The notes under the pieces are model-generated. The model made no database searches and had not been told where the DNA came from. It saw nothing but the letters and a program-made list of their open reading frames with translations. A program made the position numbers and the translations under genes. Shown here piece by piece: positions 20,808 to 46,812 of a stretch of 64,000 bases of DNA (the first letter of the stretch is position 1; each line of letters begins with the position of its first letter). The stretch covers positions 6,884,001-6,948,000 of the forward strand of contig NC_087250.1 of the NCBI RefSeq assembly GCF_037042905.1, given 5' to 3'. Source of the DNA: Lytechinus pictus (taxonomy: Eukaryota).

Positions 20808-22354
20808 TTTATAAATGGACATAGCTCATTTCATATCCGTCTCGGATATATGATTTTGGTGTTTAGACCATGGTTTCAATAGTCAAATAATACAATATGA
20901 CAAATTAAACGGACAGTCAGTTGTCCAGTTGTTCAAAAAATCCAAGATGGCTTCCAAAAATGGAGTAAAAAATAGCTGTTGCTACATTAAAAAACACGTA
21001 GTTTGATTAATATCCTGGAATATGTTTATGCCATGGTTAAATGGGTCAAACAATACATTAGGACAAATTACAAAGACAGTCAGTGGTCAAATATGTCCAA
21101 AAATCCAAGGTGGCCTCCAAATATGGAATATAAAATGGCCCCTGTTACTAACAAATGGACATATTTCGTGTAATATCTGCCAAGGGTATATCATTTTGAA
21201 TCTAAACCATGGTTTTAAAAGTCATTAAATACATCATGTACATTGGAACAAGTTACATGGACAGTCAGTAATCCAGTGTGTCTAAACATCCAAGATGGCT
21301 TCCAACAATTGCAGTCTAATCGGAGTCTGTTACTTAAAAATTGACATAATTTATTTAAAATCCACCAAGGAAAAACGATGTTGGTGTTCACACTTTGGTT
21401 TCAAATATAAAAAAATTAGTTGAGACTGGTTACAATGATATCCAGTTGTCCATTTTGCCTAAAAATCAAAAAGGGTTTTCAAAATGGCATGTACAATGAC
21501 TTCTATCACTATCACTTTCATTAGGACAAGTAACAATGATGGTTAGTTTTCAGTTTTGTCGAAAATCTAAGGTAGGTTTTAAAATTACATACTAATGGGT
21601 GCTGTTACCAACTCTTATCTGCTTGCATTTTGAATGTAGGCACCAAAATTATCTCTCACAGGTGGATATTATATCCACTTCAAAGTAATGGTCTTCATTT
21701 TCAGAACCCATTTATGGAAGCCATCTTAGATTTTCAGGAAAAATGGACAATTGTAACCAGTCCTAAAGTATAATTTGATCCTTGAAATCCTAGTGTAGAC
21801 ACCAAAATAACATCCCCAGGTTTATTTTTAATGTACTAGGTCCACTTTTAAGTAACATTATAAAAACCCATTTTTCAAGCCATCTTTGAATTTTTCGACA
21901 CAATTGACACCTGACTGTCCTTTCAAATTGACCAAATGTACAGTTTATATTACTTGACCCTTTGAATACTAGTGTAGACACCAATCATATCCCAATAGTA
22001 TATTATCAGTGAACTATATGTCCATATTGAAGTAACAACAGTCAATTTAGACCCCTTTTTGGAAGCCATCTTGGATGTTTTAACATACCAGTCCACTGAC
22101 TGTCCTTGTAACTTGTTCTTATGCATTAAACCATGGTTTTATGATTGTGGTTTATATGAGGCGCCGAATGTACCAATATTATATAGAACAATTATTTGTT
22201 ATATAATCATTATTTATTAAATAATAACTATTATTTATATATAATTTACATTTTATTTGTAAATAACTACTATTATATAAAATATCATTTCTAATTATTT
22301 ATATATAATTCCAAGTAATACTTCATTATTTGTAAATAATAATAGTTCGACATT

Positions 22355-22745
22355 CCATTATTTATAAATAATGATTATTTGTTTTTCATTATTTATAAAT
22401 AATGATTATTTGTTTTTCATTATTTATAAATAATGATTATTTGTTTTTCATTATTTACAAATAATGATTATTTGTTTTTCATTATTTATAAATAATGATT
22501 ATTTGTTTTTCATTATTTATAAATAATGATTATTTGTTTTTCATTATTTACAAATAATGATTATTTGTTTTTCATTATTTATAAATAATGATTATTTGTT
22601 TTTCATTATTTATAAATAATGATAATTGGTTTTTCATTATTTATAAATAATGATTATTTGTTTTTCATTATTTACAAATAATGATTATTTGTTTTTCATT
22701 ATTTATAAATAATGATTATTTGTTTTTCATTATTTATAAATAATT
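22355..22745. repeat. 31-bp AT-rich minisatellite (~12 copies), left arm
   Basis: Unit cattatttataaataatgattatttgttttt, containing the 18-bp palindrome cattatttataaataatg. Confidence 0.9.
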
Positions 22746-25684
22746 TGTTGAGTTTTCCATTATTTATAAATAATGATTATTTGTTAAATAATGAAAACGT
22801 CTACTTCATTATTTATAAATAATTTTTTCGAGTGCACCATTATTCTCATTATTTATAAATAATCATTATTTAATGTTCGAGTTTTCCATTATTTATAAAT
22901 AAAGATTATTTGTTAAATAATGAAATATCTACTTCATTATTTATAAATAATAATTTTGTTTCAATATCCCATTAATCATTATTTATAAACAATTTTTACA
23001 GTTTGCCATTATATACAAATAATCATTATTTATATACAAATAACCATTATTTATTAAATAATGCCATTATTTATTAAATAATGCCATTATTTATTAAATA
23101 ATGGAAAACTCGCTATAACATGCAAATGTGGGACCGCCCATGATATGAATATTCATGATGCGATTTCCTTTTTCGTAATTTTTCTTCACAAATTTTTGTC
23201 CATTTCCTCTTCATAATGACATTTCTTGAAGCAATTTTCTAGGGATATGGTCTGATTGTAATATTCTTCATTTTCTATATAACTTCGTCTTCGTAGAAAT
23301 ATCAAAAAGTGTAATTTTATACGATTTTTCCTACAGTTCACAATCCCCATAGGCGCGCGTGTACGGTAGGGACAACCGGTGAATCGACGGAGTGCTCTTC
23401 ATCGAAATACTACGTTGGTTGGTCCCCGGAAGTGGCGGGCGGAATTTAGCCCGAATCCTCGATGGAAGTCGATCAAGTGCATATGAGCTGAGAGAGTGAA
23501 ATATCAGTGTACTTGTACAGGCCCTTCTACTTTTTATAAATATTTCTTGTTGCTTTTTTTGTTAAGTTAATTTTTCCTGGTGTAGAGATAAGTTTCAGTT
23601 CTAATAATGCACTTCAAATACATTTTGGAGTGTCTGTTTGAGGCGTTTGGGGCGATTTCACCCTGGCCCCAAAATGCTCGCAACGACAATACGGGGGCAT
23701 GATGACCCCTAAATTTTTAAAAACTTATTTTTCTATTGAAAATTATCACAAAATTCACCAAAAGTGTGCACGAAAGCCTTCGTATTTCACTTTTAAAACT
23801 CCAAAAAGTGCCCAAATGACAAGCTTGGTCGCTTCGCTGTGTCGCTTTCAACTTGAGAAAGTTTACGCGTCTGCTTCCCCCCCCCTCCTCCGAAAGAAAT
23901 TATGTATACGGCCATGCTCTAAAGAGCCTGGCACATTGATTTATGTATACTTCATTTTCATTATTTTTATCTCATTATCATCATGGCCTTACGCAGAATT
24001 TTTTCCGGGGGGGGGGGGGTGGGGGGAGCAGGACGCGCGTAAACTTTCTTATAAAAATCTTGAAAAAGCGAAGCGACCAAGCTTGTCATTTGAGCTTGGT
24101 CGCGTCGCTGTCTCGCTTTCAAGATTTTTTTGAGAAACTTTACGCGCGTCCTAGCTGCTCCCCCCCCCCCCCCGGTAAAAATTCTGTGTAAGGCCATGAT
24201 GATAATGTGATAAAAATAATGAAAATGAAAAGTACATATAAATCAATGTGCCATATGCTCTTTTGAGCATGGCCGTTCACAGAATTTCTTTCGGGGGGTG
24301 GGGGCAGACGCGCGTAAACGTTCTCAAGTTGAAAGCGAGACAGCGAAGCGACCAAGCTTGTCATTTGGGCTTGGTCCCGTGGCTGTCTCGCTTTCAAGAT
24401 TTTTTTGAGAAAGTTTACGCGCGTCATGCTCCGGCCCCCCTGGAAAAAATTCTGCGTAAGGCCATGTTGATAATGAGATAAAAATAATGAAAATGAAAGT
24501 ATACATAAATCCATGTGCCGGGCTCTTTAGAGCATGGCCGTATACAGAATTTCTTTCGGAGGAGGGGGGGGGGGATATATCGAAGCAGACGCGTAAACGT
24601 TCTCAAGTTGAATGCGACACAGCGAAGCGACCAAGCTTGTCATTTGGGCACTTTTTGGAGTTTTAAAAGTGAAATACGAAGGCTTTCGTGCACACTTTTG
24701 GTGAATTTTAAAAATTTAGGGGTCATCATGCCCCGCGTATTGTCGTTGCGAGCATTTTGGGGCCAGGGTGAAATCGCCCCAAACGCCTCAAACAGACACT
24801 CCAAAATGTATTTGAAGTGCATTATTAGAATTGAAACTTATCTCTACACCAGGAAAAATTAACTTAACAAAAAAAGCAACAAGAAATATTTATAAAAAGT
24901 AGAAGGGCCTGTACAAGTACACTGATATTTCACTCTCTCAGCTCATATGCACTTGATCGACTTCCATCGAGGATTCGGGCTAAATTCCGCCCGCCACTTC
25001 CGGGGACCAACCAACGTAGTATTTCGATGAAGAGCACTCCGTCGATTCACCGGTTGTCCCTACCGTACACGCGCGCCTATGGGGATTGTGAACTGTAGGA
25101 AAAATCGTATAAAATTACACTTTTTGATATTTCTACGAAGACGAAGTTATATAGAAAATGAAGAATATTACAATCAGACCATATCCCTAGAAAATTGCTT
25201 CAAGAAATGTCATTATGAAGAGGAAATGGACAAAAATTTGTGAAGAAAAATTACGAAAAAGGAAATCGCATCATGAATATTCATATCATGGGCGGTCCCA
25301 CATTTGCATGTTATAGCGAGTTTTCCATTATTTAATAAATAATGGCATTATTTAATAAATAATGGCATTATTTAATAAATAATGGTTATTTGTATATAAA
25401 TAATGATTATTTGTATATAATGGCAAACTGTAAAAATTGTTTATAAATAATGATTAATGGGATATTGAAACAAAATTATTATTTATAAATAATGAAGTAG
25501 ATATTTCATTATTTAACAAATAATCTTTATTTATAAATAATGGAAAACTCGAACATTAAATAATGATTATTTATAAATAATGAGAATAATGGTGCACTCG
25601 AAAAAATTATTTATAAATAATGAAGTAGACGTTTTCATTATTTAACAAATAATCATTATTTATAAATAATGGAAAACTCAACAA

Positions 25685-26074
25685 ATTATTTATAAATAAT
25701 GAAAAACAAATAATCATTATTTATAAATAATGAAAAACAAATAATCATTATTTGTAAATAATGAAAAACAAATAATCATTATTTATAAATAATGAAAAAC
25801 CAATTATCATTATTTATAAATAATGAAAAACAAATAATCATTATTTATAAATAATGAAAAACAAATAATCATTATTTGTAAATAATGAAAAACAAATAAT
25901 CATTATTTATAAATAATGAAAAACAAATAATCATTATTTATAAATAATGAAAAACAAATAATCATTATTTGTAAATAATGAAAAACAAATAATCATTATT
26001 TATAAATAATGAAAAACAAATAATCATTATTTATAAATAATGAAAAACAAATAATCATTATTTATAAATAATGG
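25685..26074. repeat. 31-bp minisatellite, right arm (reverse complement)
   Basis: Mirror image of 22355-22745, including the variant units. Confidence 0.9.
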
Positions 26075-28084
26075 AATGTCGAACTATTATTATTTACAAA
26101 TAATGAAGTATTACTTGGAATTATATATAAATAATTAGAAATGATATTTTATATAATAGTAGTTATTTACAAATAAAATGTAAATTATATATAAATAATA
26201 GTTATTATTTAATAAATAATGATTATATAACAAATAATTGTTCTATATAATATTGGTACATTCGGCGCCTCATAGGTTTAGGCATCAAAATCATATTTCC
26301 CAGACAGATATTGAACAAAATATGTCCTAATCTATTATTTGACCCTTGAAACCATGGTTTAAATATCAGAATCACATCTCACAGGCGGATATAGAATGAG
26401 CTATGTAAATTTTTAAGTAACAACAGTCAATTTTAGACCCAATTTTTGTAAGCCATCTTGCGTTTTTTTAACATACCAGACCACTGATTGTCCTTGTTAC
26501 TTTTCCTAATACATTACTTCACCCTTTAAACTATGGTTTAGACACTGAAGTAATATTCCCCTGACAGATATTGATCAAGCAACATTAGAGATTGTTTTAC
26601 ACCTTTTTTTGGAAGCAATCTTGAAATTTTGGACATACTAGACCACTGACTGTCCGTGTATATGGTGTAGCATGTCCTAATGTATTATTGGTCTTTGAAA
26701 TCATAGTTTAGAACCAAAATCATATCTCACAGAAGATTATAAAATGAGCTATTCCACTTTTAAGTATCAGCACCCATTTTTAGAGTCATTTTTGAATACC
26801 ATATTGGATTTTCGGACATACTTGTCGTTGTAACTTGTCCTAATGTCCTAATATTATTAGACTCTTGAAACCAATGATTTTGACACTAAAATCACATCCC
26901 CCAGGCTAATATGAAATGAGCTACGTCCGCTTTAGGTATCAGCAACCATCTTTGATTCAATTTTTTGAAGCCATCTTGGTTTTTTGGACATTCCAGACCA
27001 CTGGCTATCCCTGTAACTTGGCCTAATGTACTACTCCTTAAAACCAATGAATAGAAACCAAATTAAAGCCACTTTATCAAGTAATGGATGAATTGTGGAT
27101 TTTTAACCTACGGCAGCCATCTTTGATTTTCCTGTTACCCTGGAGTGCTTAAATTCTTTTTAACCTTTCAACCAGTAAGGGTATTTTCGATCGTATATTG
27201 ACAGGCCTACATATCATGTACAATAACCAGTGAATAAATTACACTTCATGTTGAATAGATTCATATGTTACTTTAAAAATTATCAGGGTATTTCAACATT
27301 TTCTTCGTCAAAATCAGTAGTGTAGTTTTGAGGGGGGTGTCTGGAAAACGAAGACCGAAGACCGAAGACCGGGGACTCATATCACACTCGTGTGAAAGCG
27401 TTTGTAGTTCACGCCCGAAGTGTGTACAAAGCAGTGCAAAGTGTGTACAAAACACGTGCGCGGGTTAGAATGGACTTTGGACCTTACCCGACACATGTTC
27501 TCCCATTGACAATGCACGGGTCCCCGGTCTTCGATCTTCGTTTTCCAAACCCGCTGTTGGGTGTCTGGAAAACGAAGACCGAAGACCGGGGATCGCATTC
27601 GTTTAGCTAAGATACCACTTATAAATGTCATTATGAAGGCCTCTATTATTCAGCTCAAATTCAAGAATATTCTGATCTAGAATACATTAATGTCATTAAT
27701 TAGCTGATAATGAAGTCATGTTAATTGCTAATTGTGTCAATAATTAGTATAGTTAGACCAGTTGAAGCGGGATAGGTCTCCCAGTTTTCACCACTATTCC
27801 ACTGAGACAAGTAACAAACTCCAGTAATCAATCAGACCAGTTTCAAATTTCCAGTTAAAGGTTAACTCTAGACCAGTAATTTCAGACCAGTTTAATTCTT
27901 AACTGGTCCAGTAAAGTGAACTCGACCAGTTAGACCAGTATGCCGTTTTTCCATTTTCCAGAATTACATTCTGTGAACTGGTTTTTCCTTAATTCTTAAT
28001 TGGCTGACATTAATTTGCAATTTTACTACCATTGACATAACACATGTCCCCGGTCTTCGGTCTTCGTTTTCCAAACCTGTTGTT

Positions 28085-31000
28085 GGGTGTCTGGAAAACG
28101 AAGACAGAAGACCGGGGATCGCGTCAATTCGTCTAGCTAAGATAGGCCTATAATATTCAGCACCAGTTCAAGAATATTCTGATCTTGGATACGTCATCAG
28201 CTATGATTGGCTGCGGATAAGTTATTGTTATTTGTGTGAATATCGTTATCAGCTAGGGCATGATATTAAGGATAGCGTACATATTTCACCCATGGAATTC
28301 AGCCATTGCAATTCTGAAAACTGTCATAAAACTGAAAACTTGCATACAATACACCTCATTCTGCGCAATCACGTAAAGCAGACTCAACTCAACTGGCGTT
28401 TGCAACTATTTTATACTACCATTGACATTACGCATGTCCCCGGTCTTCGGTCTTCGTTTTCCAAACCTGTTGTTGGGTGTCTGGAAAACGAAGACAGAAG
28501 ACCGGGGATTGCGTATTCGTCTAGCTAAGATAGGCCTATAATATTCAGCACCAGTTCAAGAATATTCTGATCTTGGATACGTCATCAGCTATGATTGGCT
28601 GCGGATAAGTTATTGTTATTTGTGTGAATATCGTTATCAGCTAGGGCATGATATTAAGGATAGCGTACATATTTCACCCATGGAATTCAGCCATTGCAAT
28701 TCTGAAAACTGTCATAAAACTGAAAACTTGCATACAATACACCTCATTCTGCGCAATCACGTAAAGCAGACTCAACTCAACTGGCGTTTGCAACTATTTT
28801 ATACTACCATTGACATTACGCATGTCCCCGGTCTTCGGTCTTCGTTTTCCAAACCTGTTGTTGGGTGTCTGGAAAACGAAGACAGAAGACCGGGGATTGC
28901 GTATTCGTCTAGCTAAGATAGGCCTATAATATTCAGCACCAGTTCAAGAATATTCTGATCTTGGATACGTCATCAGCTATGATTGGCTGTGGATAAGTTA
29001 TGGTTATTTGTGTGAATATCGTTATCAGCTAGGGCATGATATTAAGGATAACGTACATATTTCACCCACGGAATTCAGCCATTGCAATTCTGAAAACTGT
29101 CATAAAACTGAAAACTTGCATACAATACACCCCATACTGCGCAATCACGTACAAGCAGACTCAACTCAACTCGCGTTTGCAATTATTTTACTACCATTGA
29201 CATTATGCATGTCCCCGGTCTTCGGTCTTCGTTTTCCAAACCTGTTGTTGGGTGTCTGGAAAACGAAGACAGAAGACCGGGGATTGCGTATTCGTCTAGC
29301 TAAGATAGGCCTATATAATATTCAGCTCCAGTTTAAGAATATTCTGATCTTGGATACGTCATCAGCTATGATTGGCTGCGGATAAGTTATGGTTATTTGT
29401 GTGAATATCGTTATCAGCTAGGGCATGATATTACTAAGGATAACGTACATATTTCACCCACGGAATTCAGCCATTGCAATTCTGAAAACTGTCATAAAAC
29501 TGAAAACTTGCATACAATACACCTCATACTGCGCAATCACGTAAAGCAGACTCAACTCAACTGGCGTTTGCAACTATTTTATACTACCATTGACATTACG
29601 CATGTCCCCGGTCTTCGGTCTTCGTTTTCCAAACCTGTTGTTGGGTGTCTGGAAAACGAAGACAGAAGACCGGGGATTGCGTATTCGTCTAGCTAAGATA
29701 GGCCTATAATATTCAGCACCAGTTCAAGAATATTCTGATCTTGGATACGTCATCAGCTATGATTGGCTGTGGATAAGTTATGGTTATTTGTGTGAATATC
29801 GTTATCAGCTAGGGCATGATATTAAGGATAACGTACATATTTCACCCACGGAATTCAGCCATTGCAATTCTGAAAACTGTCATAAAACTGAAAACTTGCA
29901 TACAATACACCTCATACTGCGCAATCACGTACAAGCAGACTCAACTCAACTCGCGTTTGCAATTATTTTACTACCATTGACATTATGCATGTCCCCGGTC
30001 TTCGGTCTTCGTTTTCCAAACCTGTTGTTGGGTGTCTGGAAAACGAAGACAGAAGACCGGGGATTGCGTATTCGTCTAGCTAAGATAGGCCTATAATATT
30101 CAGCTCCAGTTTAAGAATATTCTGATCTTGGATACGTCATCAGCTATGATTGGCTGTGGATAAGTTATGGTTATTTGTGTGAATATCGTTATCAGCTAGG
30201 GCATGATATTAAGGATAACGTACATATTTCACCCAAGGAATTCAGCCATTGCAATTCTGAAAACTGTCATAAAACTGAAAACTTGCATACAATACACCCC
30301 ATACTGCGCAATCACGTACAAGCAGACTCAACTCAACTGGCGTTTGCAATTATTTTACTACCATTGACATTATGCATGTCCCCGGTCTTCGGTCTTCGTT
30401 TTCCAAACCTGTTGTTGGGTGTCTGGAAAACGAAGACAGAAGACCGGGGATTGCGTATTCGTCTAGCTAAGATAGGCCTATAATATTCAGCTCCAGTTTA
30501 AGAATATTCTGATCTTGGATACGTCATCAGCTATGATTGGCTGCGGATAAGTTATGGTTATTTGTGTGATTATCGTTATCAGCTAGGGCATGATATTAAG
30601 GATAACGTACATATTTCACCCACGGAATTCAGCCATTGCAATTCTGAAAACTGTCATAAAACTGAAAACCTGCATACAATACACCTCATACTGCGCAATC
30701 ACGTACAAGCAGACTCAACTCAACTGGCGTTTGCAATTATTTTACTACCATTGACATTATGCATGTCCCCGGTCTTCGGTCTTCGTTTTCCAAACCTGTT
30801 GTTGGGTGTCTGGAAAACGAAGACAGAAGACCGGGGATTGCGTATTCGTCTAGCTAAGATAGGCCTATAATATTCAGCTCCAGTTTAAGAATATTCTGAT
30901 CTTGGATACGTCATCAGCTATGATTGGCTGCGGATAAGTTATGGTTATTTGTGTGAATATCGTTATCAGCTAGGGCATGATTAATAAGGATAGACAATTA

Positions 31001-34000
31001 TAATGTACATATTTCACCCACGGATTTCAGCCATTGCAATTCTGAAAACTGTCATAAAACTGAAAACTTGCATACAATACACCCCATACTGTGCAATCAC
31101 GTACAAGCAGACTCAACTCAACTGGCGTTTGCAACTATTTTACTACCATTGACATTACGCATGTCCCCGGTCTTCGGTCTTCGTTTTCCAAACCTGTTGT
31201 TGGTGTCTGGAAAACGAAGACAGAAGACCGGGGATTGCGTATTCGTCTAGCTAAGATAGGCCTATAATATTCAGCACCAGTACAAGGATATTCCGATCTT
31301 GGATACGTCATCAGCTATGATTGGCTGCGGATAAGTTATGGTTATTTGTGTGAATATCGTTATCAGCTAGGGCATGATTAATAAGGATAGACAATTATAA
31401 TGTACATATTTCACCCACGGAATTCAGCCATTGCAATTCTGAAAACTGTCATAAAACTGAAAACTTGCATACAATACACCCCATACTGCGCAATCACGTA
31501 CAAGCAGACTCAACTCAACTCGCGTTTGCAATTATTTTACTACCATTGACATTATGCATGTCCCCGGTCTTCGGTCTTCGTTTTCCAAACCTGTTGTTGG
31601 GTGTCTGGAAAACGAAGACAGAAGACCGGGGATTGCGTATTCGTCTAGCTAAGATAGGCCTATATAATATTCAGCTCCAGTTTAAGAATATTCTGATCTT
31701 GGATACGTCATCAGCTATGATTGGCTGCGGATAAGTTATGGTTATTTGTGTGAATATCGTTATCAGCTAGGGCATGATATTACTAAGGATAACGTACATA
31801 TTTCACCCACGGAATTCAGCCATTGCAATTCTGAAAACTGTCATAAAACTGAAAACTTGCATACAATACACCTCATACTGCGCAATCACGTAAAGCAGAC
31901 TCAACTCAACTGGCGTTTGCAACTATTTTATACTACCATTGACATTACGCATGTCCCCGGTCTTCGGTCTTCGTTTTCCAAACCTGTTGTTGGGTGTCTG
32001 GAAAACGAAGACAGAAGACCGGGGATTGCGTATTCGTCTAGCTAAGATAGGCCTATAATATTCAGCACCAGTTCAAGAATATTCTGATCTTGGATACGTC
32101 ATCAGCTATGATTGGCTGTGGATAAGTTATGGTTATTTGTGTGAATATCGTTATCAGCTAGGGCATGATATTAAGGATAACGTACATATTTCACCCACGG
32201 AATTCAGCCATTGCAATTCTGAAAACTGTCATAAAACTGAAAACTTGCATACAATACACCCCATACTGTGCAATCACGTACAAGCAGACTCAACTCAACT
32301 CGCGTTTGCAATTATTTTACTACCATTGACATTATGCATGTCCCCGGTCTTCGGTCTTCGTTTTCCAAACCTGTTGTTGGGTGTCTGGAAAACGAAGACA
32401 GAAGACCGGGGATTGCGTATTCGTCTAGCTAAGATAGGCCTATAATATTCAGCTCCAGTTTAAGAATATTCTGATCTTGGATACGTCATCAGCTATGATT
32501 GGCTGTGGATAAGTTATGGTTATTTGTGTGAATATCGTTATCAGCTAGGGCATGATATTAAGGATAACGTACATATTTCACCCAAGGAATTCAGCCATTG
32601 CAATTCTGAAAACTGTCATAAAACTGAAAACTTGCATACAATACACCCCATACTGCGCAATCACGTACAAGCAGACTCAACTCAACTGGCGTTTGCAATT
32701 ATTTTACTACCATTGACATTATGCATGTCCCCGGTCTTCGGTCTTCGTTTTCCAAACCTGTTGTTGGGTGTCTGGAAAACGAAGACAGAAGACCGGGGAT
32801 TGCGTATTCGTCTAGCTAAGATAGGCCTATAATATTCAGCTCCAGTTTAAGAATATTCTGATCTTGGATACGTCATCAGCTATGATTGGCTGCGGATAAG
32901 TTATGGTTATTTGTGTGATTATCGTTATCAGCTAGGGCATGATATTAAGGATAACGTACATATTTCACCCACGGAATTCAGCCATTGCAATTCTGAAAAC
33001 TGTCATAAAACTGAAAACCTGCATACAATACACCTCATACTGCGCAATCACGTACAAGCAGACTCAACTCAACTGGCGTTTGCAATTATTTTACTACCAT
33101 TGACATTATGCATGTCCCCGGTCTTCGGTCTTCGTTTTCCAAACCTGTTGTTGGGTGTCTGGAAAACGAAGACAGAAGACCGGGGATTGCGTATTCGTCT
33201 AGCTAAGATAGGCCTATAATATTCAGCTCCAGTTTAAGAATATTCTGATCTTGGATACGTCATCAGCTATGATTGGCTGCGGATAAGTTATGGTTATTTG
33301 TGTGAATATCGTTATCAGCTAGGGCATGATTAATAAGGATAGACAATTATAATGTACATATTTCACCCACGGATTTCAGCCATTGCAATTCTGAAAACTG
33401 TCATAAAACTGAAAACTTGCATACAATACACCCCATACTGTGCAATCACGTACAAGCAGACTCAACTCAACTGGCGTTTGCAACTATTTTACTACCATTG
33501 ACATTACGCATGTCCCCGGTCTTCGGTCTTCGTTTTCCAAACCTGTTGTTGGGTGTCTGGAAAACGAAGACAGAAGACCGGGGATTGCGTATTCGTCTAG
33601 CTAAGATAGGCCTATAATATTCAGCACCAGTACAAGGATATTCCGATCTTGGATACGTCATCAGCTATGATTGGCTGCGGATAAGTTATGGTTATTTGTG
33701 TGAATATCGTTATTAGCTAGGGCATGATTAATAAGGATAGACAATTATAATGTACATATTTCACCCACGGAATTCAGCCATTGCAATTCTGAAAACTGTC
33801 ATTAAATCTGAAAACTTGCATACAATACACCCCATACTGTGCAATCACGTACAAGCAGACTCAACTCAACTGGCGTTTGCAACTATTTTACTACCATTGA
33901 CATTACGCATGTCCCCGGTCTTCGTTTTCCAAACCTGTTGTTGGGTGTCTGGAAAACGAAGACAGAAGACCGGGGATTGCGTATTCGTCTAGCTAAGATA

Positions 34001-34103
34001 GGCCTATAATATTCAGCACCAGTTCAAGAATATTCTGATCTTGGATACGTCATCAGCTATGATTGGCTGCCGAAAAGTTATGGTTATTTGTGTGAATATC
34101 GTT
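28085..34103 (+). repeat. ~388-bp tandem satellite, 15 full units plus a partial, with a 2349-bp 6-unit higher-order duplication
   Basis: Recurrent pseudo-ORF starts at 28232, 28620, 29008, 29397, 29788, 30175, 30562... Pairs 29397/31746, 29788/32137, 30175/32524 and 30562/32911 are all offset by 2349. Confidence 0.95.
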
Positions 34104-34259
34104 CACATCCAAGATGACGAGATACGATATCTCGCCAAGTCGACTTATAAAAGGTCATATATGTCGACATGGCGAGATAACGTATCTCGCCATGTCGACA
34201 TTATGTCGACATGGCATAATTAAGTTTCTCGCCAAGTCGATGGCAATTAAAACATGTAA

Positions 34260-34840
34260 AATGGATGGTCCTCGCTGAAAATATTTATACCTTAATACAT
34301 AGAGAAGAATTCACTGAGCAATGTGCCGAAAATTTCATCAATCGTATAACAAGTAAACAGTTATTGAAGTTTAAAGTTTAGCAATATATTGTTAAAACAG
34401 TCGTCGTGAATATTCATTAGGTGGGCTGATGATGTCACATCTCCACTCTCCGTTTCCCTATGTTATTTTATATAATCATAATTTTTACATTATTTCATAT
34501 TTGTGCTAATAATATGTCTCCCTTATAATGAAATAAGTTGCAGCAAATAAATATTTAATGCACTAAATCAGTTGCCAATCCAATTTTTCTACATTTTTGT
34601 TCTTGGATGAAAACATTTGAATAAACCTAATTTCATATAATAAAATACAAAAGAACAAGTGGAGATGTGACATCATCAGCCAACCTAATGAATATTTATG
34701 ACGACTGTATTCACAAAATATTGCTAAATTTTAAAATTCAATAACTTTGTTATCCGATTTTGATGAAATTTTCGGTATTTTGCTCAGTGAATTTTACTCT
34801 ATTCATTAAGCTATACATGCTTTCAGCCCGGACCATCCCT
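34260..34840. mobile_element. Kolobok-like MITE
   Basis: ggatggtcctcgctgaaa / tttcagcccggaccatccct followed by TTAA; internal inverted gctgatgatgtcacatctccac / gtggagatgtgacatcatcagc. Confidence 0.6.
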
Positions 34841-35510
34841 TTAAAGGCTCCGTATAAAATAAACCTAATTGTAATAGAAAGCAATGTCATCGACCTAAGA
34901 CAGGTGGCAAGCGTGCCTTTGTAGAATGCTGTTGCCGGTATGCGATGTTTTCTATACGGTCGGCGCACATGAAACACAAGTGCGTCGCTTGTATACTACT
35001 TTGCGGTTAAACCCGAGACGTTCCCACGCGTACATTTCGAGAGCAACAATTCAGTACGCGTTTGGAAGAAAATTACCCTGTTTGCACGTGCATCGGCTTT
35101 TGGTTCAGAACCAAAAGCCGATGAAGAATTGGCTTTTGGTCTATCTTGCACCGCAGAATCGGCTTACGTACCTCTTTGGGAATCGACGGGCGGACGACAT
35201 TTGGATCTCTTAGTCTCGCCTTCACCTCTTGCGGGCGAGACAAACAATGAGAAAGAGAAGGAAGAAAGGAGAAAGGAAAAGGGCCAATAATTGGAATGAT
35301 CAAACAAATCTAATCATCCTGAAATTGGGCCTACTAATAAACAAGTGAGAAAGGGGTTAGAAATAAAGAGATGGCAAAGTGGAACGGAAATTTTAGGCGG
35401 GAAAGGGAAGGAAGAGAGGCCAAAATAAACGGGATGCGAAAATGCTAACATGAAATCGGAATAGAAAACAGAAAAAACAAGAGGGGAAAAGAAAGAAATT
35501 AAGAACACAA

Positions 35511-36820
35511 CAGCTAGTGGCGTAGCTACGGGGGGGGGGCTGGGATTTGGTGTGCCCCCATCAGGTGCCCCGCCTGGAAAAAAATTGGTAGAGCAGAAAA
35601 AAAGGGAGAAAGAAGAAAAGAAAAAGAAGAAGAAAGACAGAAGAAAAAAGAAGAAGAAAGACAGAAGAAAAAAGAAGAAGAAAATAAGAGGAGGGAGACG
35701 AATGAATGAAATAATGTGAGGGGAAGACTTGCCAAAAAAGAAACAATTCTTTCATGTTACTATAAAAAATCTTTGCTTGCGCTTCGCGCCAGAATTGACT
35801 GTTCGATGAGATTCATATCTTGCTCAATAGGCTGATATGGAGCAAGTTTTGAAGTCATTATACAAAACATAATTAGCTCGGACATCGAGCTTTCAATATT
35901 TTTTTCATTTACAAATTTAAGTGCTCTGTAAAATGTCCGTTTTATTGTCCACATATCAGCATTTTTTTTTAAAGCTCACGCTGCGTGGTCACATTGTTTG
36001 ATTTGCCAAGTTCCTATTGTCTACATGTATTCCATAATGTTCCATTAAAGAAATATATTCAGAATGCCCAGATTCTAGGTCTAAATCTAAAACATGCGCG
36101 ATAGCATGCATGTTCTTTATTTAAAATCTACTTGAATTATCCAGTTTCACATCAGAATATAAATAATTGTCTGCTCGCGCTTTACGATAGCATAATTAAT
36201 GATACCCAATTAACTATATCCTATTTATGATTTACAAAATATGAATAGTGTCCCGCTTTTAGGTCTAAAATCTCAATTTTTTTCCTCTCGCGCTTCGCGC
36301 TCGCATCCATTGTTTCGTTACATACCTATCCCATTTATTGATACAAAAAGTGCTTAGAATTACCATTCTTTTAGGTCGGAATGTCAAAAAAATTGCATTA
36401 TTGAAATATTTACCATCTTCGTGGGTACCTATATAAGTGCACTTAACAGGTCCCTTTTCGATAATGCTAGAACAGTTAATAAAAATTTCTGCTCGCGCTT
36501 GGCGTTCGCAGTAACCATCTAGTTACTTACGAATCTTGATCGGGATCACACATAACATTGCCCAGAATATTACATGAAAGTAACAAATAAAAAAAATCGC
36601 TCGCGCTTCGCGCTCGCACTTTTTATAATGCTTATGAGATTATTTCATGTTTATGCTGTTTTATAAGAATATAACGAAGAAGTGACTGATCGGGAAAAAT
36701 ATAGGTGAAGATAATTTCGGGCCCTTGTGACAAGTACACACCGGATAAAAATGGTGCCCCCCTGACTCAAAGCAAGGACCCCCAGTGCCCCCCAGGAAAA
36801 AAATCCTAGCTACGCCACTG
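35511..36820. mobile_element. Non-autonomous hAT-like element
   Basis: TIR core gtggcgtagcta / tagctacgccactg and 8-bp TSD gaacacaa (35503-10, 36821-28). Interior gctcgcgcttcgcgctcgc units are homologous to 3825-7349. Confidence 0.8.
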
Positions 36821-37029
36821 GAACACAACCGGGATACCGAGGTTGAAAATAAAGAACGGTAAGAAAGACTCGGCTGGTGTGTGGGTATGACGTGTATATA
36901 ATAGCCTATTTTGATTTCACGCAACTAGCCGCAATCATAAGGGGACACAAATTAGTGAACTTCAAGATATCGCCCAACCACTGCCGATGATCCTATCCAG
37001 GGGACAGACCGCTCTTCACACCATGATAT

Positions 37030-38505
37030 GAAGCGGCGTAACAGGGGTCGGTGGCCAGGGGCGGGGGGGGGGCGGGCAAGAGCCAAATATTTCCTGGTCA
37101 CATTATATGGTATAAACAGGCGTAATGAGCCGACACTATTTTGAGAAGGCCAGATATTGTGCATCGGACAGAATTTATCTTTAAAAAAATGCGAGCGAGC
37201 AAAATTTTTGACCTTTTTAATACAAAAATACAATTTTGTGATAGATTTTGACATGATGTCCAGAGAATGATATTTCACTCTTCTCTCTTTGGATTCCTTT
37301 TTTGTCGTCTGTACGCGCACTGTGAACAGGATTCTTTGCGGCTGTAACGTGAAGAGTAAAAAAAAAAAAAAAAACAGGGGTGGAGTATACCACATGTGCT
37401 AAAGAAAGCTGTTTTATATCAGTCCCGAGCGAAGCGAGCGAGAAAAAAATCACCTTTTCATGAGAATCTAACTTTGAGCTATTTTTTGACATTATATTCA
37501 GTAAATAAAATCATATCCTACACTTTTCCTCTGCTTTTTTTGCGTTTTTGTTTGTACAACTTTTTGGGCCCATGGCCCAACACTTCCATACGCAGTGATG
37601 TGCGGTTGGGGTCCGGGGCGGAGCCCCCTGAAAACTTCTTGATATCAAAGCCATTTAAACCTCGCAGATTGCCGCTATTTTAATCAAATCGCATTCTACA
37701 TAGACTATAGCTTTTACACAACACATTTATTCAACCCAGTTGCGTAACGAACCAAATATTTATAGGGCAAAGCATACCAACGTGGGAAAAAAATTGTAAA
37801 AAGTCGCTAGCGTGCAAAGTGAGCTGGAAAAAAATTGCCTATTGAAATTAAATTCTAATTATGTGATATATTTTCCATTATATTCAGCAAATAACACATT
37901 TCATTGTCCATTCATTTCATTATACTTTGTCTCCTATAATTTCTTTTTTTCCCTCTTGGGTGTGGAACACCCCCCCCCCCCCTAGCAAAATCTAGCAAGC
38001 TTATAACACAATGTTGTATGCAGACCATCTTTCTTCCCGCTCTTTTCAATCATCGGCAGCCCGGTCGTGTTATTATTTTTTTCTTGTCCTTTTTCCCTTG
38101 TATTTTTTTCCAATTTAGCTTTTGATTAATTACGTTCTACCTTCGTTTCCCGCTCTTCATACCATTTTGTTATCTTTTAAATTATTTCCCACCGTGCTAT
38201 TGCATTACATAGGCCTATTTCGGAATGATGTGTTCTTTCTCAAATGTTCTTCTTTCGTATATTTTCCCGCTTTCCTTTCTTTTCCATTCAAAAAAAAAGT
38301 TTTTTTCTTCGTTTTCTTTTTAATTTTCCCTTTCCTTTTCCTCCTTTCCTTTTCCCATTTCCTTCCCCATTTCCCTTTCTTTCTTTCTCCCTCCCTTTTT
38401 TCTTTTTCCCGTTTTTCTTAATTACGCCACTGATGATAATGACCGGGAATTTTCTGGCTCTCGTCCCCCCCCCCTCCCCTGGCCACCGAGCGCTGCTACG
38501 TCCCT
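37030..38505. mobile_element. Degenerate TIR element, hAT-like
   Basis: tcggtggccagggg...agagcca...ggtca inverted against tgacc...tggctct...cccctggccaccga; TSD not resolved. Confidence 0.5.
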
Positions 38506-38704
38506 GATTCTATGTAAGCATCTATTAATTGCATGCATTTTTTCAGTTTGAAAATTTGTTTTCTTTAAAAACGATATGACAATTTCATGAAATATTGTAT
38601 CCACGTATATCGGTTGTTTTAAGGTCTGTTTATCAGCCAGCATGAAGAAAACGAAGTACAATTGCACGGAAACGTGTCCATAGCACGCTATATGTGGTAA
38701 TTAG

Positions 38705-41171
38705 CTTGACGAATGAAATCCCCGGTCTTCTGTCTTCGTTTTCCAGACACCCAACAACAGGTTTGGAAAACGAAGACCGAAGACCGGGGACATGCGTAAT
38801 GTCAATGGTAGTAAAATAGTTGCAAACGCCAGTTGAGTTGAGTCTGCTTGTACGTGATTGCGCAGTATGAGGTGTATTGTATGCAAGTTTTCAGTTTTAT
38901 GACAGTTTTCAGAATTGCAATGGCTGAATTCCGTGGGTGAAATATGTACGTTATCCTTAATATCATGCCCTAGCTGATAACGATATTCACACAAATAACC
39001 GTAACTTATCCGCAGCCAATCATAGCTGATGACGTATCCAAGATCAGAATATTCTTAAACTGGAGTTGAATATTATAGGCCTATCTTAGCTAGACGAATA
39101 CACAATCCCCGGTCTTCTGTCTTCGTTTTCCAGACACCCAACAACAGGTTTGGAAAACGAAGACCGAAGACCGGGGACATGCATAATGTCAAAGGTAGTA
39201 TAGTTGCAAACGCCAGTTGAGTTGAGTCTGCCTGTACGTGATTGCGCAGTATGAGGTGTATTGTATGCAAGTTTTCAGTTTTATGACAGTTTTCGGAATT
39301 GCAATGGCTGAATTCCTTGGGTGAAATATTTACGTTATCCTTAATATCATGCCCTAGCTGATAACGATATTCACACAAATAACAATAACTTATCCGCAGC
39401 CAATCATAGCTGATGACGTATCCAAGATCAGAATATTCTTGAACTGGTGCTGAATATTATAGGCCTATCTTAGCTAGACGAATTGACGCGATCCCCGGTC
39501 TTCTGTCTTCGTTTTCCAGACACCCAACAACAGGTTTGGAAAACGAAGACCGAAGACCGGGGACATGCGTTATGTCAATGGTAGTAAAATTGCAAATTAA
39601 TGTCAGCCAATTAAGAAGGAAAAACCAGTTCACAGAATGTAATTCTGGAAAATGGAAAAACGGCATACTGGTCTAACTGGTCGAGTTCACTTTACTGGAC
39701 CAGTTAAGAATTAAACTGGTCTGAAATTACTGGTCTAGAGTTAACCTATCTGGAAATTTGAAACTGGTCTGATTGATTACTGGAGTTTGTTACTTGTCTC
39801 AGTGGAATAGTGGTGTAAACTGGGAGACCTATCCCGCTTCAACTGGTCTAACTATACTAATTATTGACACAAGCAATTAACATGACTTCATTATCAGCCA
39901 ATTAATGACACTAATGTATTCTAGATCAGAATATTCTTGAATTTGAGCTGAATAATAGAGGCCTTCATAATGACATTTATAAGTGGTATCTTAGCTAAAC
40001 GAATGCGATCCCCGGTCTTCGTTTTCCAGACACCCAACAACAGGTTTGGAAAACGAAGACCGAAGACCGGGGACATGCACAATGTCAATGGTAGTAAAAT
40101 AGTTGCAAACGCCAGTTGAGTTGAGTCTGCCTGTACGTGATTGCGCAGTATGAGGTGTATTGTATGCAAGTTTTCAGTTTTATGACAGTTTTCGGAATTG
40201 CAATGGCTGAATTCCTTGGGTGAAATATGTACGTTATCCCTAATATCATGCCCTAGCTGATAACGATATTCACACAAATAACAATAACTTATCCGCAGCC
40301 AATCATAGCTGATGACGTATCCAAGATCAGAATATTCTTGAACTGGTGCTGAATATTATAGGCCTATCTTAGCTAGACGAATTGACGCGATCCCCGGTCT
40401 TCTGTCTTCGTTTTCCAGACACCCAACAACAGGTTTGGAAAACGAAGACCGAAGACCGGGGACATGCGTTATGTCAATGGTAGTAAAATTGCAAATTAAT
40501 GTCAGCCAATTAAGAAGGAAAAACCAGTTCACAGAATGTAATTCTGGAAAATGGAAAAACGGCATACTGGTCTAACTGGTCGAGTTCACTTTACTGGACC
40601 AGTTAAGAATTAAACTGGTCTGAAATTACTGGTCTAGAGTTAACCTATCTGGAAATTTGAAACTGGTCTGATTGATTACTGGAGTTTGTTACCGTGTCTC
40701 AGTGGAATAGTGGTGTAAACTGGGAGACCTATCCCGCTTCAACTGGTCTAACTATACTAATTATTGACACAAGCAATTAACATGACTTCATTATCAGCCA
40801 ATTAATGACATTAATGTATTCTAGATCAGAATATTCTTGAATTTGAGCTGAATAATAGAGGCCTTCATAATGACATTTATAAGTGGTATCTTAGCTAAAC
40901 GAATGCGATCCCCGGTCTTCGGTCTTCGTTTTCCAGACACCCAACAGCGGGTTTGGAAAACGAAGATCGAAGACCGGGGACCCGTGCATTGTCAATGGGA
41001 GAACATTTGTCGGGGTAAGGTCCAAAGTCCATTCTAACCCGCGCACGTGTTTTGTACACACTTTGCACTGCATGCTTTGTACACACTTCGGGCGTGAACT
41101 ACAAACGCTTTCACACGAGTGTGATATGAGTCCCCGGTCTTCGGTCTTCGGTCTTCGTTTTCCAGACACCC
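38705..41171 (-). repeat. Right arm of the foldback element: modules A-B-C-B-C-C read from the terminus
   Basis: Reverse-complement copies of left-arm modules; B+C block repeated at an 899-bp offset (ORFs 39457 and 40356). Confidence 0.9.
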
Positions 41172-42801
41172 GTTTTGAGGGGGCCAGATACATGTATGAG
41201 AGCCAGATATCGAGAAAAAATCCTTTGAAACAGTTGTCAGCGAGTCCAGCGAGAGAGCACAACTTTCGAAATTTTTCAATGCAACAATAAAATTTGGTAA
41301 AAGAGTTTGGGTATAATATTCGTAAAATAATCATATTTCATCAATCTCTCTTTCACTTTCTCTTTATTGGTAATGATTTATTTAGGGGGGAGTAGGGTTG
41401 CACAATTTCCCGGGAATTTTCCATGGGAATAAACGGGAATTTTGTGGGAATTTCTTGAATTTTTGGAAATTTTCAGGAAATTTCAAGAAATGATGGTTAT
41501 TTACAAAAAAGTAACAATTTTCTGATAATTATATGCATGAATTGAAAGGCGTACCATAAAAAATGATGCTTTCCAACATTGTTTGTTATTAAATTTAATT
41601 CAAGCATTACCATGGCAACATAATTTTTATCTTCATAAGATATTCCTGCAGAACACTTTCTGTATTTTAGTTCAAATGAGGGGGTCGAAACTTAAGCATA
41701 CGGATTAAGTCAATTCCAATTGTATTTTCCACCTGTTCATTGTCTTGTCAACCATGCTATTTTTGTAAATTAGAAGTTATTTGGTTGCCATGGTAATGTC
41801 TGTAGATGTTATTTACACTTTTAGCAACCACAATACATTTGTTTACGAACTTGAAAATTAGGGGAAATCAAAGCTAAATCATATTCTTTTTTTATATTTT
41901 TTATTTTTCTGGGGTAAAACAAGCCGTTGTCATGGCAACGGACCAATTGGAACTATCTTGGTGATCTTGAATATTTCTTAATTTCATATAAATTCAATTG
42001 GGAACCTGAAAATTATCATTTTCGTCGTCTATATCACGTTTATTTACCATTTACATCGGAATGTATTTTATTTTGGAGAAATTAATCCGTTACCATGGCA
42101 ACGGCCGAAAATGGCATTTATAAATTTACCTCCCATCTTTAAAATAAATATTGCAGCATACTAACACTTGTGAAAGTTTCAGGCTTTAGTCATAATTTGC
42201 ACAATTGTTCGGCTTATCCGCTCTACTATTACACCAAACTTAATATAAACACCCTTCAAGGGCTCAATAAATGATTAGCCTGTTTTACGTTATTTTAAGT
42301 TCAACAGTAGTTAATTCGATGATGCTTTCAGAATGGTTTTCTATCATCATTAGTCCAATGTATGTACATTCTCTTTAATTCTCTTATTCTAAATTCATAT
42401 CGCAATGACGTGATGACACATTATTGCAGATGACTATTCCCAACACTATTTAATTATGGTATTTGATATTAAACTAAAAACGAACCATATTCTTCCAGAT
42501 TTTTATTTTTTATTTATCTATTATTATTATTATTTTTTTTTTTTTTGGGGGGGGGCAATTCGAATGAAGTCTAACGTTGCTTTGTTTATTGCCTCCATGG
42601 CAACGGCGATTTTTCTTTCTTCAAGATATATCTGTTCTCTTATGGTTTATAGTTAATGGTTATAATAATGATACGAGTTACATATTGCTTGTAATGTGAT
42701 TCGAATTATATTTCTGATCATTATGATCACGATGATAACTCTATCAGTGATGTAATATATTTTGATCGCCAAATACATCTTTTCTGAAGCATCACACTGT
42801 A

Positions 42802-45300: not shown

Positions 45301-45818
45301 GCATTACTTTTTTAAATATTGTTTTTAAGGCCTATTTATGCACATATGGTAAGCAACATGTGCAGAGCTACTCGGCCGTTGATGGACCCTGAGTGCAAGA
45401 AACCCATGTGCAGTAGAATGCCTTTGTTGATGCGCACTCAGTTGCGGTAGCGTGGTTTGCGTATAGATGAACTAACAGAATGCGGTGCCACTGCAAGTCT
45501 ATGGGGGTCAGGCCGGTCATTACATGGCCGTAAATTAAACATAGATATAATACCCCTTTCGTCATTTTCGTATTTTTTTCTCTGTTTTTTTTTCAGCGTT
45601 TCTCTCAAATTAAAAAGCACACCTTTTTTTGGTTGCCAACAAATAGGGGGCGAGGCCGGAGAAATGCTATTTGGGGGGAGGGGGATTTAGCTAAACTAGA
45701 GATACGCTTCCATTTTAATTGTTTCTTTTATTTAAAAAAATTATCACTCGGTATTTGTTCAAAACTAATCCTCTGAATTAATACATTTTCTTTAAATGTC
45801 TAAATAATATCTAATATT

Positions 45819-46812
45819 AACAAGTGGAATGCCTCTGGCCGTCTCACCTGCATCACGCGATTCAATATAGCAGCAGTGCTGATTTTGAAAACTACTATAA
45901 CTCGCACAAGATGTTCAGTGATACTTGGTTACTCTTATTTCCACGTTTTATGAACTAGACCAATACACTTATAGAGATATGATGGCAATTCAACAAATAC
46001 CCCCAACGTGGCCAAAGTTCTTTGACCTTACATGACCTTTGACCTTGATCATGTGACCTGAAACTCGCACAGGATGTTCAGTGATACTTGATTACTATTA
46101 TGTCCAAGTTTTATGAACTAGACCAACACACTTTCAAATTTATGGCTGTAATTCAACAAATACCCCAATTTGGCCAAAGTTCATTGACCCTAAATGACCT
46201 TTGACCTTGATCATGTGACCTGAAACTTGCACAGGATGTTCAGTAATACTTGATTACTATTATGTCCAAGTTTCATGAATCAGATCCATAAACTTTCAAA
46301 GTTATGATGGTAATTCAACAGATACCCCCAATTCGGCCAAAGTTCATTGACCCTAAATGACCTTTGACCTTGGTCATGTGACGTGAAACTCATGCAGGAT
46401 GTTCAGTGATACTTGATTAACCTTATGTATAAGTTTCATGAACTAGGTCCATATATTTTCTAAGTTATGATGACATTTCAAAAACTTAACCTTAGGTTAA
46501 GATTTTGATGTTGATTCCCCCAACATGGTCTAAGTTCATTGACCCTAAATGACCTTTGACCTTGGTCATGTGACATGAAACACAGGCAGGATGTTCAGTA
46601 ATACTTGATTAACCTTATGGCCAAGTTTCATGAACTAGGTCCATATACTTTCTAAGTTATGCTGTCATTTCAAAAACTTAACCTCAGGTTAAGATTTGGT
46701 GTTGACGCCGCCGCCGCCGTCGCCGCCGCCACCGCCGCCGCCGTCGCCGTCGCCGCCGCCGTCGGAAAAGCGGCGCCTATAGTCTCACTCTGCTATGCAG
46801 GTGAGACAAAAA
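45819..46812 (-). mobile_element. Non-autonomous Helentron-associated (HINE / DINE-1-like) element
   Basis: Subterminal inverted repeat gtctcacctgcat / atgcaggtgagac, terminal hairpin gtctcac...gtgagac, (GCC)n tract at ~46707-46760, and internal ~163-bp tandem units. No TSD seen. Confidence 0.7.

Follow-up and report, generated by a model that had tools for sequence, protein, structure and literature searches.

A young foldback transposon family of probable Mutator affiliation in Lytechinus pictus, with arms of related units joined at palindromic junctions

Foldback transposons whose tandem-repeat arms differ in length, whose middle is non-coding and whose target site duplications (TSDs) measure 8-10 bp are well described, and most have been placed in Mutator (PMC4079207, PMC3169594), whose Mutator-like elements (MULEs) make TSDs of 8-11 bp, usually 9 (PMC6446971). 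Tetris, a foldback of Drosophila virilis (Dias et al. 2014, PMC4079207), is non-autonomous and has been called modular, its arms carrying a variable number of ~220-bp repeats that share 37 bp with the terminal domain. Its TSDs measure 8-10 bp, a Mutator affiliation has been proposed for it and its arm repeats have been linked to satellite DNA (PMC4079207). Here, we describe an element that resembles Tetris in these respects and occupies positions 27335-41171 of a 64-kb stretch of the Lytechinus pictus genome (NC_087250.1, positions 6,884,001 to 6,948,000). The stretch was analysed as a whole and is called the window below; it is AT-rich (GC 0.27-0.44) and belongs to contig C6 of an 812-Mb, 368-contig assembly. 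We interpret the element as a non-autonomous member of a young Mutator (MULE) foldback family whose copies move as whole elements and whose arms are rebuilt by recombination at the junctions between arm units, a reading to which we assign a probability of about 0.8.

The element is a non-coding foldback of 13.8 kb, flanked by the 10-bp TSD GTTTTGAGGG, which is found flush on the left (27325-27334) and on the right (41172-41181), as an earlier note on this DNA, made from the sequence alone, had stated. The left arm (6.8 kb, forward strand) opens with the terminus (GGGTGTCTGGAAAAC, three GAAGACC repeats and GGGGA) and module A, together 224 bp (27335-27558), followed by module B (526 bp, 27559-28084), whose cargo holds eight copies of ACTGGT/ACCAGT. 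It continues through 15 full C modules of 387-398 bp each (28085-33942) and closes with a 16th C module at its inner end (33943-34103), cut after 118 bp of cargo. Tandem Repeats Finder assigned the left-arm C array a period of 387, 15.6 copies and 96% matches, and the point at which the last C is cut (cargo 1-118) recurs in seven other fetched copies of the family. Across a family-specific middle segment of 4.6 kb (34104-38699), the right arm (2.5 kb, reverse strand) begins with an inner stub of 53 bp, comprising an inverted end motif and ~20 bp of C (38700-38752). It then runs outwards through two inverted C modules (38753-39139 and 39140-39525), a second copy of the inverted B module (39526-40035), an inverted C module (40036-40424), an inverted B module (40425-40942) and the inverted module A with the right terminus (..CCAGACACCC; 40943-41171). 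The arm orders given in the earlier note, A-B-Cx15 on the left and inverted A-B-C-B-C-C on the right, thus hold, to which the cut 16th C and the stub are added here; 15 full C units in the left arm face three in the right. The middle contains no stop-free frame longer than 151 aa, a Pfam scan of seven frames from the element gave no match at E <= 0.01 and an Rfam scan of the whole window gave none.

The units of the arms are joined by copies of the element's own end motif. Its 12-mer core, GGAAAACGAAGA, occurs 48 times in the window on either strand, always within 27343-41152 and nowhere else, and these copies resolve into the two outer termini and 23 internal junctions (17 in the left arm and six in the right). 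Each junction has the layout R'(..CGTTTTCCAAACC)-TGTTGTT-L(GGGTGTCTGGAAAAC..), with the spacer reading CGCTGTT at the A/B junction; one of the 23, with inner right end, TGTTGTT and left end motif in succession, lies at 28047-28118. Folded as single-stranded DNA, the junction reaches -31.3 kcal/mol, compared to -11.3 +/- 2.5 kcal/mol for 200 shuffled sequences (z -7.9), none of which folded as well. The hairpin, tail-to-head nature of the junctions had been recognised in the earlier note, which took them for about 20 pairs of terminus copies. This description is only partly borne out, as the count is 23 and the inner right-hand tip reads GGTTTGG rather than the GGGTGTCTGG of the true terminus. 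Relative to the latter, three bp are missing and one is changed, while ~26 nt of the inner core match; the internal left tips match the true terminus over 21 nt.

Junctions are more uniform than the sequences they separate. In a set of 153 C units, 125 of them distinct, taken from 15 elements and from the arms of a very large family member on contig C5 (the C5 giant, see below), right tip and spacer diverged by 0.001-0.003, compared to 0.005-0.065 for the cargo; the left core, by which the units had been picked out, was not counted. For the spacer, divergence was 0.003 over the 125 distinct units. B and C have their first ~100 bp and last ~55 bp in common, and the last ~45 bp are common to all three modules. 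A, B and C are variants of one unit, not unrelated cargos.

Genome searches revealed a young and dispersed family. A 91-bp junction query returned 717 first-look candidates, of which 40 were scored and proved 99-100% identical, and the cargo of module A returned 74, of which 40 were scored at 97-100% identity, forming 17 plus/minus pairs and six singles. Termini that stand outside a junction context numbered 45 in an exact genome scan, compared to none for a reversed control; 32 of the 45 form 16 pairs that span 1.4-75 kb and whose flanks agree with a TSD of 9-10 bp. Module A matches and terminus scan combined, the family numbers at least 35 elements of 1.4-75 kb. Large copies below the size of the giants include those on C6 (34 kb), C16 (26 kb), C22 (23 and 43 kb) and C30 (28 kb), with C3 and C13 also having members in the 20-34-kb range. 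We fetched 13 other loci, which yielded 11 complete elements and two partial ones. TSDs were flush in all 12 complete copies, the window copy included (eight of 10 bp and four of 9 bp), and all differed in sequence, so that the earlier note's foldback transposon with a 9-10 bp TSD is confirmed, and the lengths fall within the 8-11 bp of Mutator/MULE elements. Long inverted tandem-repeat arms around a middle, arm lengths that vary (0-15 full C units per arm among 15 fully read elements and the arms of the C5 giant) and dispersed copies with TSDs are the marks of a foldback. The exact junction motif occurs 583 times in the genome; all 100 among the matches listed lie in elements, and the 15 read elements hold 181. 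Each family copy brings satellite-like C arrays to a new site, in line with the proposal that the element moves satellite DNA.

The middle segment travels with the arms. Of the 13 other loci fetched, 10 contain it at an identity of 90-99%, and the three exceptions are two mini-elements and one 4.9-kb copy. A unique 401-bp piece of it had 26 full-length genome matches, of which 20 lie inside intervals with both family ends seen, five beside one family end or arm, and one is unplaced (C6:11.37 Mb, 88%). The window copy does not have the makings of a Pack-MULE, since its middle is without a Pfam match and the unique part occurs full-length only with the family. Several other repeats were observed within the middle. 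At ~34259-34842, a nested long-hairpin repeat of ~580 bp has arms that are ~73% complementary, and related copies in the interior of the giant members identify it as a separate dispersed family. A palindromic piece of ~84 bp with a GGCTTTTGGTTCAGAACCAAAAGCC core (35071-35154) is a very abundant small dispersed repeat; the 401-bp query, which holds it, drew 1578 first-look genome candidates. In addition, three copies (C3 11.60 Mb, C2 45.66 Mb and C17 12.58 Mb) have a ~1.5-kb insertion in one and the same left-arm C unit, showing that an element is copied whole, scars included. In the C3 copy, this insertion is ~83% like positions 2938-4325 of the family middle, in reverse orientation, so this stretch of the middle is itself another repeat.

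The arms change by gain, loss and reordering of units. In the left arm of the window element, C units 4-8 are 100, 99.5, 100, 100 and 100% identical to units 10-14 (pairs 4/10, 5/11, 6/12, 7/13 and 8/14), and mean identity at a lag of six units is 97.96%, compared to 95.8-96.9% at other lags, the result of a recent duplication of a six-unit block of 2.35 kb. Module order and number differ between copies, as the earlier note's modular arms would have it: tabulated per locus, at least five orders were seen, namely A-B-Cn, in which most short copies are arranged, A-B-C-B-C(-C), A-C5-B-C4-B-C-B in a giant member on contig C4, and A-B-C2-B-C3-B and A-B-C3-B-C3-B in the two arms of the C5 giant. The closest relative of the window element (C3 11.60 Mb; middle 98.9% identical) has the right arm A-B-C-B-C in common with it and differs in C number in both arms. 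Two mini-elements of 1.47 kb (A-B|B'-A') and 1.37 kb (A-B-C-A') both have their crossover inside the ~26-nt core common to left and right end copies. As this core stands in both orientations at every junction, any two junctions, whether in one arm or in opposite arms, offer direct as well as inverted homology. The block duplication, the changes of order and the mini-element deletions are all explained by events at these sites, be they unequal exchange, slippage or repair. Foldback arms have been described as recombination hot spots (PMC3169594).

Based on these results, we suggest the following course of events. The element would transpose as a whole in cut-and-paste fashion, using its two outermost end motifs with the module A that lies behind each, and its insertion would generate the duplication of 9-10 bp of target. 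The enzyme would most likely be a SWIM-finger MULE transposase acting in trans, from a gene that is full-length only in giant members of 75 and 63 kb with the same termini and modules. The arms are tandem arrays of related units, set apart by a constant palindrome of ~75 bp in which two opposed copies of the 33-bp end motif enclose the 7-bp spacer, and recombination probably takes place at these constant junctions. There, unequal exchange or slippage would alter the number of units, duplicate blocks and reorder B and C, and deletion between arms would give rise to mini-elements. The repeated end motifs probably serve, in addition, as extra binding sites for the transposase, by analogy with what has been proposed for Galileo and Tetris; the Tetris authors cite the Galileo arm repeats in this role (PMC4079207).

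How the arrays began is a separate question, and one answer is compatible with the course of events just outlined. The arrays may have started as a tandem dimer of a true miniature inverted-repeat transposable element (MITE), expanded by unequal exchange and kept because one tip per junction is damaged, an origin that we consider a serious option at somewhat less than even odds. Two insertions into one site, or an excised circle copied by the rolling-circle route, would leave tail-to-head junctions with a short constant spacer, and arrays of this kind are known for hobo, P and Bari1, with arrays of incomplete terminal inverted repeats (TIRs) argued to persist (PMC5932611). The missing three bp and single change of the inner right tip would fit, as would the result of a genome pattern scan for junctions with two intact terminus tips, which gave no matches. 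On the other hand, the spacer measures 7 bp and the family TSD 9-10 bp, and exact genome scans found no free ancestor MITE. Moreover, an internal duplication of terminal sequence inside the TIR, as for TIR-220 of Tetris (PMC4079207), fits equally well.

A candidate for the enzyme came from the two largest members of the family. The C4 giant (C4:3049977-3124911, 75 kb) and the C5 giant (C5:27290437-27353370, 63 kb) are flanked on both sides by TGAATATTA and GTACTTGCC, respectively (9/9 matches in each case), and the arms of the former are 99.4% identical over 4.9 kb. A genome scan with PF10551 (MULE) gave 17 matches from 44 candidates, all of them scored, and two of the matches, the ones examined for these termini, lie inside the two giants. 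In the C4 giant, the domain (30.7 bits, compared to a cut-off of 27.6) resides in an open frame of 894 aa. When the protein was searched back against the 812-Mb genome and all 18 candidates were scored, only two were full-length, both in the giants, with the C5 copy 99% identical to the C4 copy. The remainder consisted of 3'-end fragments, which sit in a four-copy 1.88-kb tandem just downstream of the open reading frame (ORF), one decayed copy (~50%) and one distant relative (24-27%). The earlier note had placed the element among MULE-type transposons and called for a copy with these termini that encodes a transposase; a DDE transposase with a MULE domain is indeed encoded by the family, in the two giants and not in the window copy.

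The candidate transposase has 56 relatives at E <= 1e-5, the best 73% identical, and the named ones, both annotated as SWIM-type, come from the sea cucumber Apostichopus japonicus (40%) and from Mytilus edulis (27%). In an alignment of 15 sequences, D301, D370, E503, C391xxH394 and the SWIM residues C691/C693/C702/H704 are invariant, the SWIM-type pattern CxCx8CxH lying at 691-704, downstream of the catalytic domain. Pfam reported no SWIM match on the protein at E <= 0.01, and a PDB sequence search returned none at E <= 1. No RNA record was listed for the ORF, and depth over it was ~0 in three raw-read RNA runs from the same species (~6% of each sampled), with a few reads in one run only (up to 1.4 in five bins); heavy RNA depth in the first 1400 bp of the fetched C4 piece that contains the ORF belongs to an unrelated high-copy repeat. 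We regard the C4 element as the best candidate for an autonomous source and predict that its transposase acts on the termini of the family. Two further proposals were tried and rejected. An unrelated MULE nested in the giants is ruled out by the lack of a TIR pair around the ORF (within 11 kb) and of any further full copy in the genome; derivation of the short copies' middle by deletion from the giant interior is rejected, as there is no homology between them.

The interior of the giants is mixed, and with it comes an intron-less kinase ORF of 357 aa (Pkinase, 2e-34) at C4:3065886-3066956 and C5:27338018-27339088. It is 100% identical between the giants and may serve the element as an accessory gene or be carried as cargo. 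Its next genomic match, in 1393-aa frames on C14 and C15, is only 36% identical, such that capture of a host gene by the giants is not established. A tandem-repeat family of 163/192 bp, found in the window at 45817-46705 and 1228-1747, is 71-88% like DNA upstream of the C4 transposase ORF; RNA reads matching it are abundant in three runs, with a depth of up to ~515 in the sampled 6%.

The giants could also be composites and not the autonomous form, in which case foldback ends would have mobilised a chromosomal segment with a MULE gene, a kinase and a long interspersed nuclear element (LINE), the true source lying elsewhere or being extinct. Such composites would account for the mixed interior, which holds, besides the kinase ORF, a nested LINE (APE+RT, 994 aa) and other repeats, and giant composites flanked by foldbacks are known in Drosophila as Ising's TE (PMC6431247). 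Full-length transposase found nowhere else among the scored candidates is not what this explanation would lead one to expect, nor is the lack of any inverted-repeat pair that brackets the ORF within 11 kb, and the MULE superfamily predicts the very TSD of 9-10 bp that was observed. We consider such a composite origin unlikely.

Several observations weigh against the reading that we prefer, a MULE foldback family supplied by a transposase from the giants. The Pfam score of the transposase is barely above its threshold, and the C5 copy is disrupted around residues 727-738 by a single TGA and a frameshift. The 64-kb interior of the giants and the 4.6-kb middle of the short copies share only the unrelated dispersed hairpin repeat, so the short copies did not arise from the sequenced giants by simple deletion. 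At its inner end, the left arm of the C4 giant has a free inverted terminus; this fits a composite origin, as does the unrelatedness of interior and middle. In addition, recombination at junctions and breaks made by the transposase at internal left tips are indistinguishable by sequence alone. Finally, full reads comprise 15 elements and two arms of the C5 giant, and the pattern scans accept exact matches only, so that diverged solo modules would be missed.

The earlier note went further, proposing that each module is formally a complete MITE and that the element, a chain of independently mobile units, could also transpose from internal ends. Each unit does, after all, lie between inverted stretches of the end motif, ~26-33 bp in length, the internal left tips equal the true terminus over 21 nt, and the left arm of the C4 giant is closed by a true terminus at either end. 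Nevertheless, none of the 583 exact genomic copies of the inner right end, GGTCTTCGTTTTCCAAACC, is free, each being followed by the next left end at junction distance. A true terminus leading into a B- or C-type start outside a junction context, sought with a filter that sees about three quarters of possible flanks, occurred twice in the genome. The first sits within an ordinary arm, at a junction whose spacer has mutated, and the second is an isolated end with ~55 bp of B, without a partner end within 1.5 kb; neither is a solo unit, and the check for solo modules with their own 9-10 bp TSDs thus came up empty. All 28 arm ends read, in 16 elements, have A as their outermost module, a count that leaves out the second terminus of the C29 copy and the second arm of the C17 copy, the middle of the C5 giant being unfetched as well. 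Single modules therefore depart from MITEs in their unequal tips, in a constant 7-bp spacer that replaces a variable TSD of their own and in having no dispersed solo copies in exact scans. There is no sign in these sequences of internal ends being used for transposition, and we consider working MITE modules very improbable. Independent MITEs inserted side by side are likewise rejected, because the spacer is constant and the duplicated C block identical.

Assembly is difficult where tandem and inverted repeats are long, and counts of C per arm could be off, but a false foldback made of collapsed or mis-joined repeats deserves next to no credence, given that 35 or more loci spread over many contigs show this design and that every one of them has unique flanks and a matching TSD of its own.

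Among described systems, Tetris comes nearest in concept, with FB and Tm1 also close. FB, a foldback of Drosophila, has short arm units of 10-31 bp in direct orientation. FB/FB-NOF, Galileo and the nematode Mutator/Foldback family Tm1 resemble the present family in having long, composite tandem-repeat TIRs and arm lengths that vary between copies and ends, FB and Tm1 also in their 9-bp TSDs, and Tm1, moreover, in comprising MITE-like, cargo-bearing and transposase-bearing members (PMC3169594). The arm units of Tm1 are direct repeats of 14 bp, compared to units of 390-526 bp with inverted end copies here, and Galileo differs in its P-type enzyme (PMC3169594). Unlike Tetris, the present family has units that are bounded by the end motif in both orientations, with a palindromic junction, and three unit types that are shuffled. 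It has a candidate transposase, whereas none was found for Tetris (PMC4079207), and no sign of arrays outside elements was seen among the 100 of 583 junction motifs listed. The arrays of hobo, P and Bari1 likewise consist of units joined tail to head through TIR-spacer-TIR junctions; they grow by unequal exchange, and those with damaged TIRs persist (McGurk and Barbash 2018, PMC5932611). They occupy fixed chromosomal sites (PMC5932611), whereas the arrays described here form the inverted arms of a transposing element. With Ising's TE of Drosophila, in which very large segments are moved between foldback ends (PMC6431247), the 63- and 75-kb copies can be compared. In contrast to it, the giants of the present family carry the family's only transposase gene and near-identical arms of 4.9 kb.

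The TU elements of another sea urchin, Strongylocentrotus purpuratus (Liebermann et al. 1983; Hoffman-Liebermann et al. 1985), are reported to be a heterogeneous family of modularly structured foldbacks with multi-domain inverted repeats and variable middles. Their outer domains reportedly consist of short tandem repeats of ~15 bp, unlike those of the present family. Long units of 390-526 bp, closed by the end motif both ways with one tip altered and serving as the inverted arms of a transposing element, were not found in the reports compared. The earlier note had held that the architecture matches no described family. This is true of the full combination, as far as these reports reach, but arm repeats with terminal sequence are known from Tetris and Galileo (PMC4079207). 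As a tentative and more far-reaching proposal, which we consider possible and not likely, the element may represent an undescribed design. Its arms would be chains of disarmed MITE units with one tip altered, cruciform-capable junctions would serve as transposase sites and as points of breakage and exchange, a 390-bp satellite would be rebuilt and dispersed, and the autonomous form would measure 63-75 kb and carry a private kinase.

The surroundings of the element in the window contain further repeats. Upstream, at a distance of 1 kb, positions 22160-26271 (~4.1 kb) are taken up by another foldback-like element that is unrelated to the first. Both of its ends start with GAGGCGCCGAATGTACC, and a 31-bp repeat (15 copies) and a 20-bp repeat (five copies) make up arms that mirror each other in repeat order across a 275-bp tandem (24067-24646); no clean TSD could be read by eye. 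A reverse-transcriptase fragment at 2978-3652 (RVT_1, E 7e-17) and four overlapping frames of 217-341 aa at 15494-18463, which gave no Pfam match, are probably decayed retroelements.

The family links the growth of foldback arms, the rise and survival of tandem arrays of TIR units and the spread of satellite-like DNA through a genome, topics that are usually studied apart. Its youth (97-100% identity), together with a candidate intact transposase and mini-elements of 1.4 kb, makes the effect of repeated end motifs and the cutting of internal ends testable. The TSD-flanked copies of 63-75 kb, with their kinase ORF the most surprising by-product of the analysis, bear on the size limit of natural cut-and-paste elements; if the autonomous form does have this size, it would be among the largest natural MULEs.

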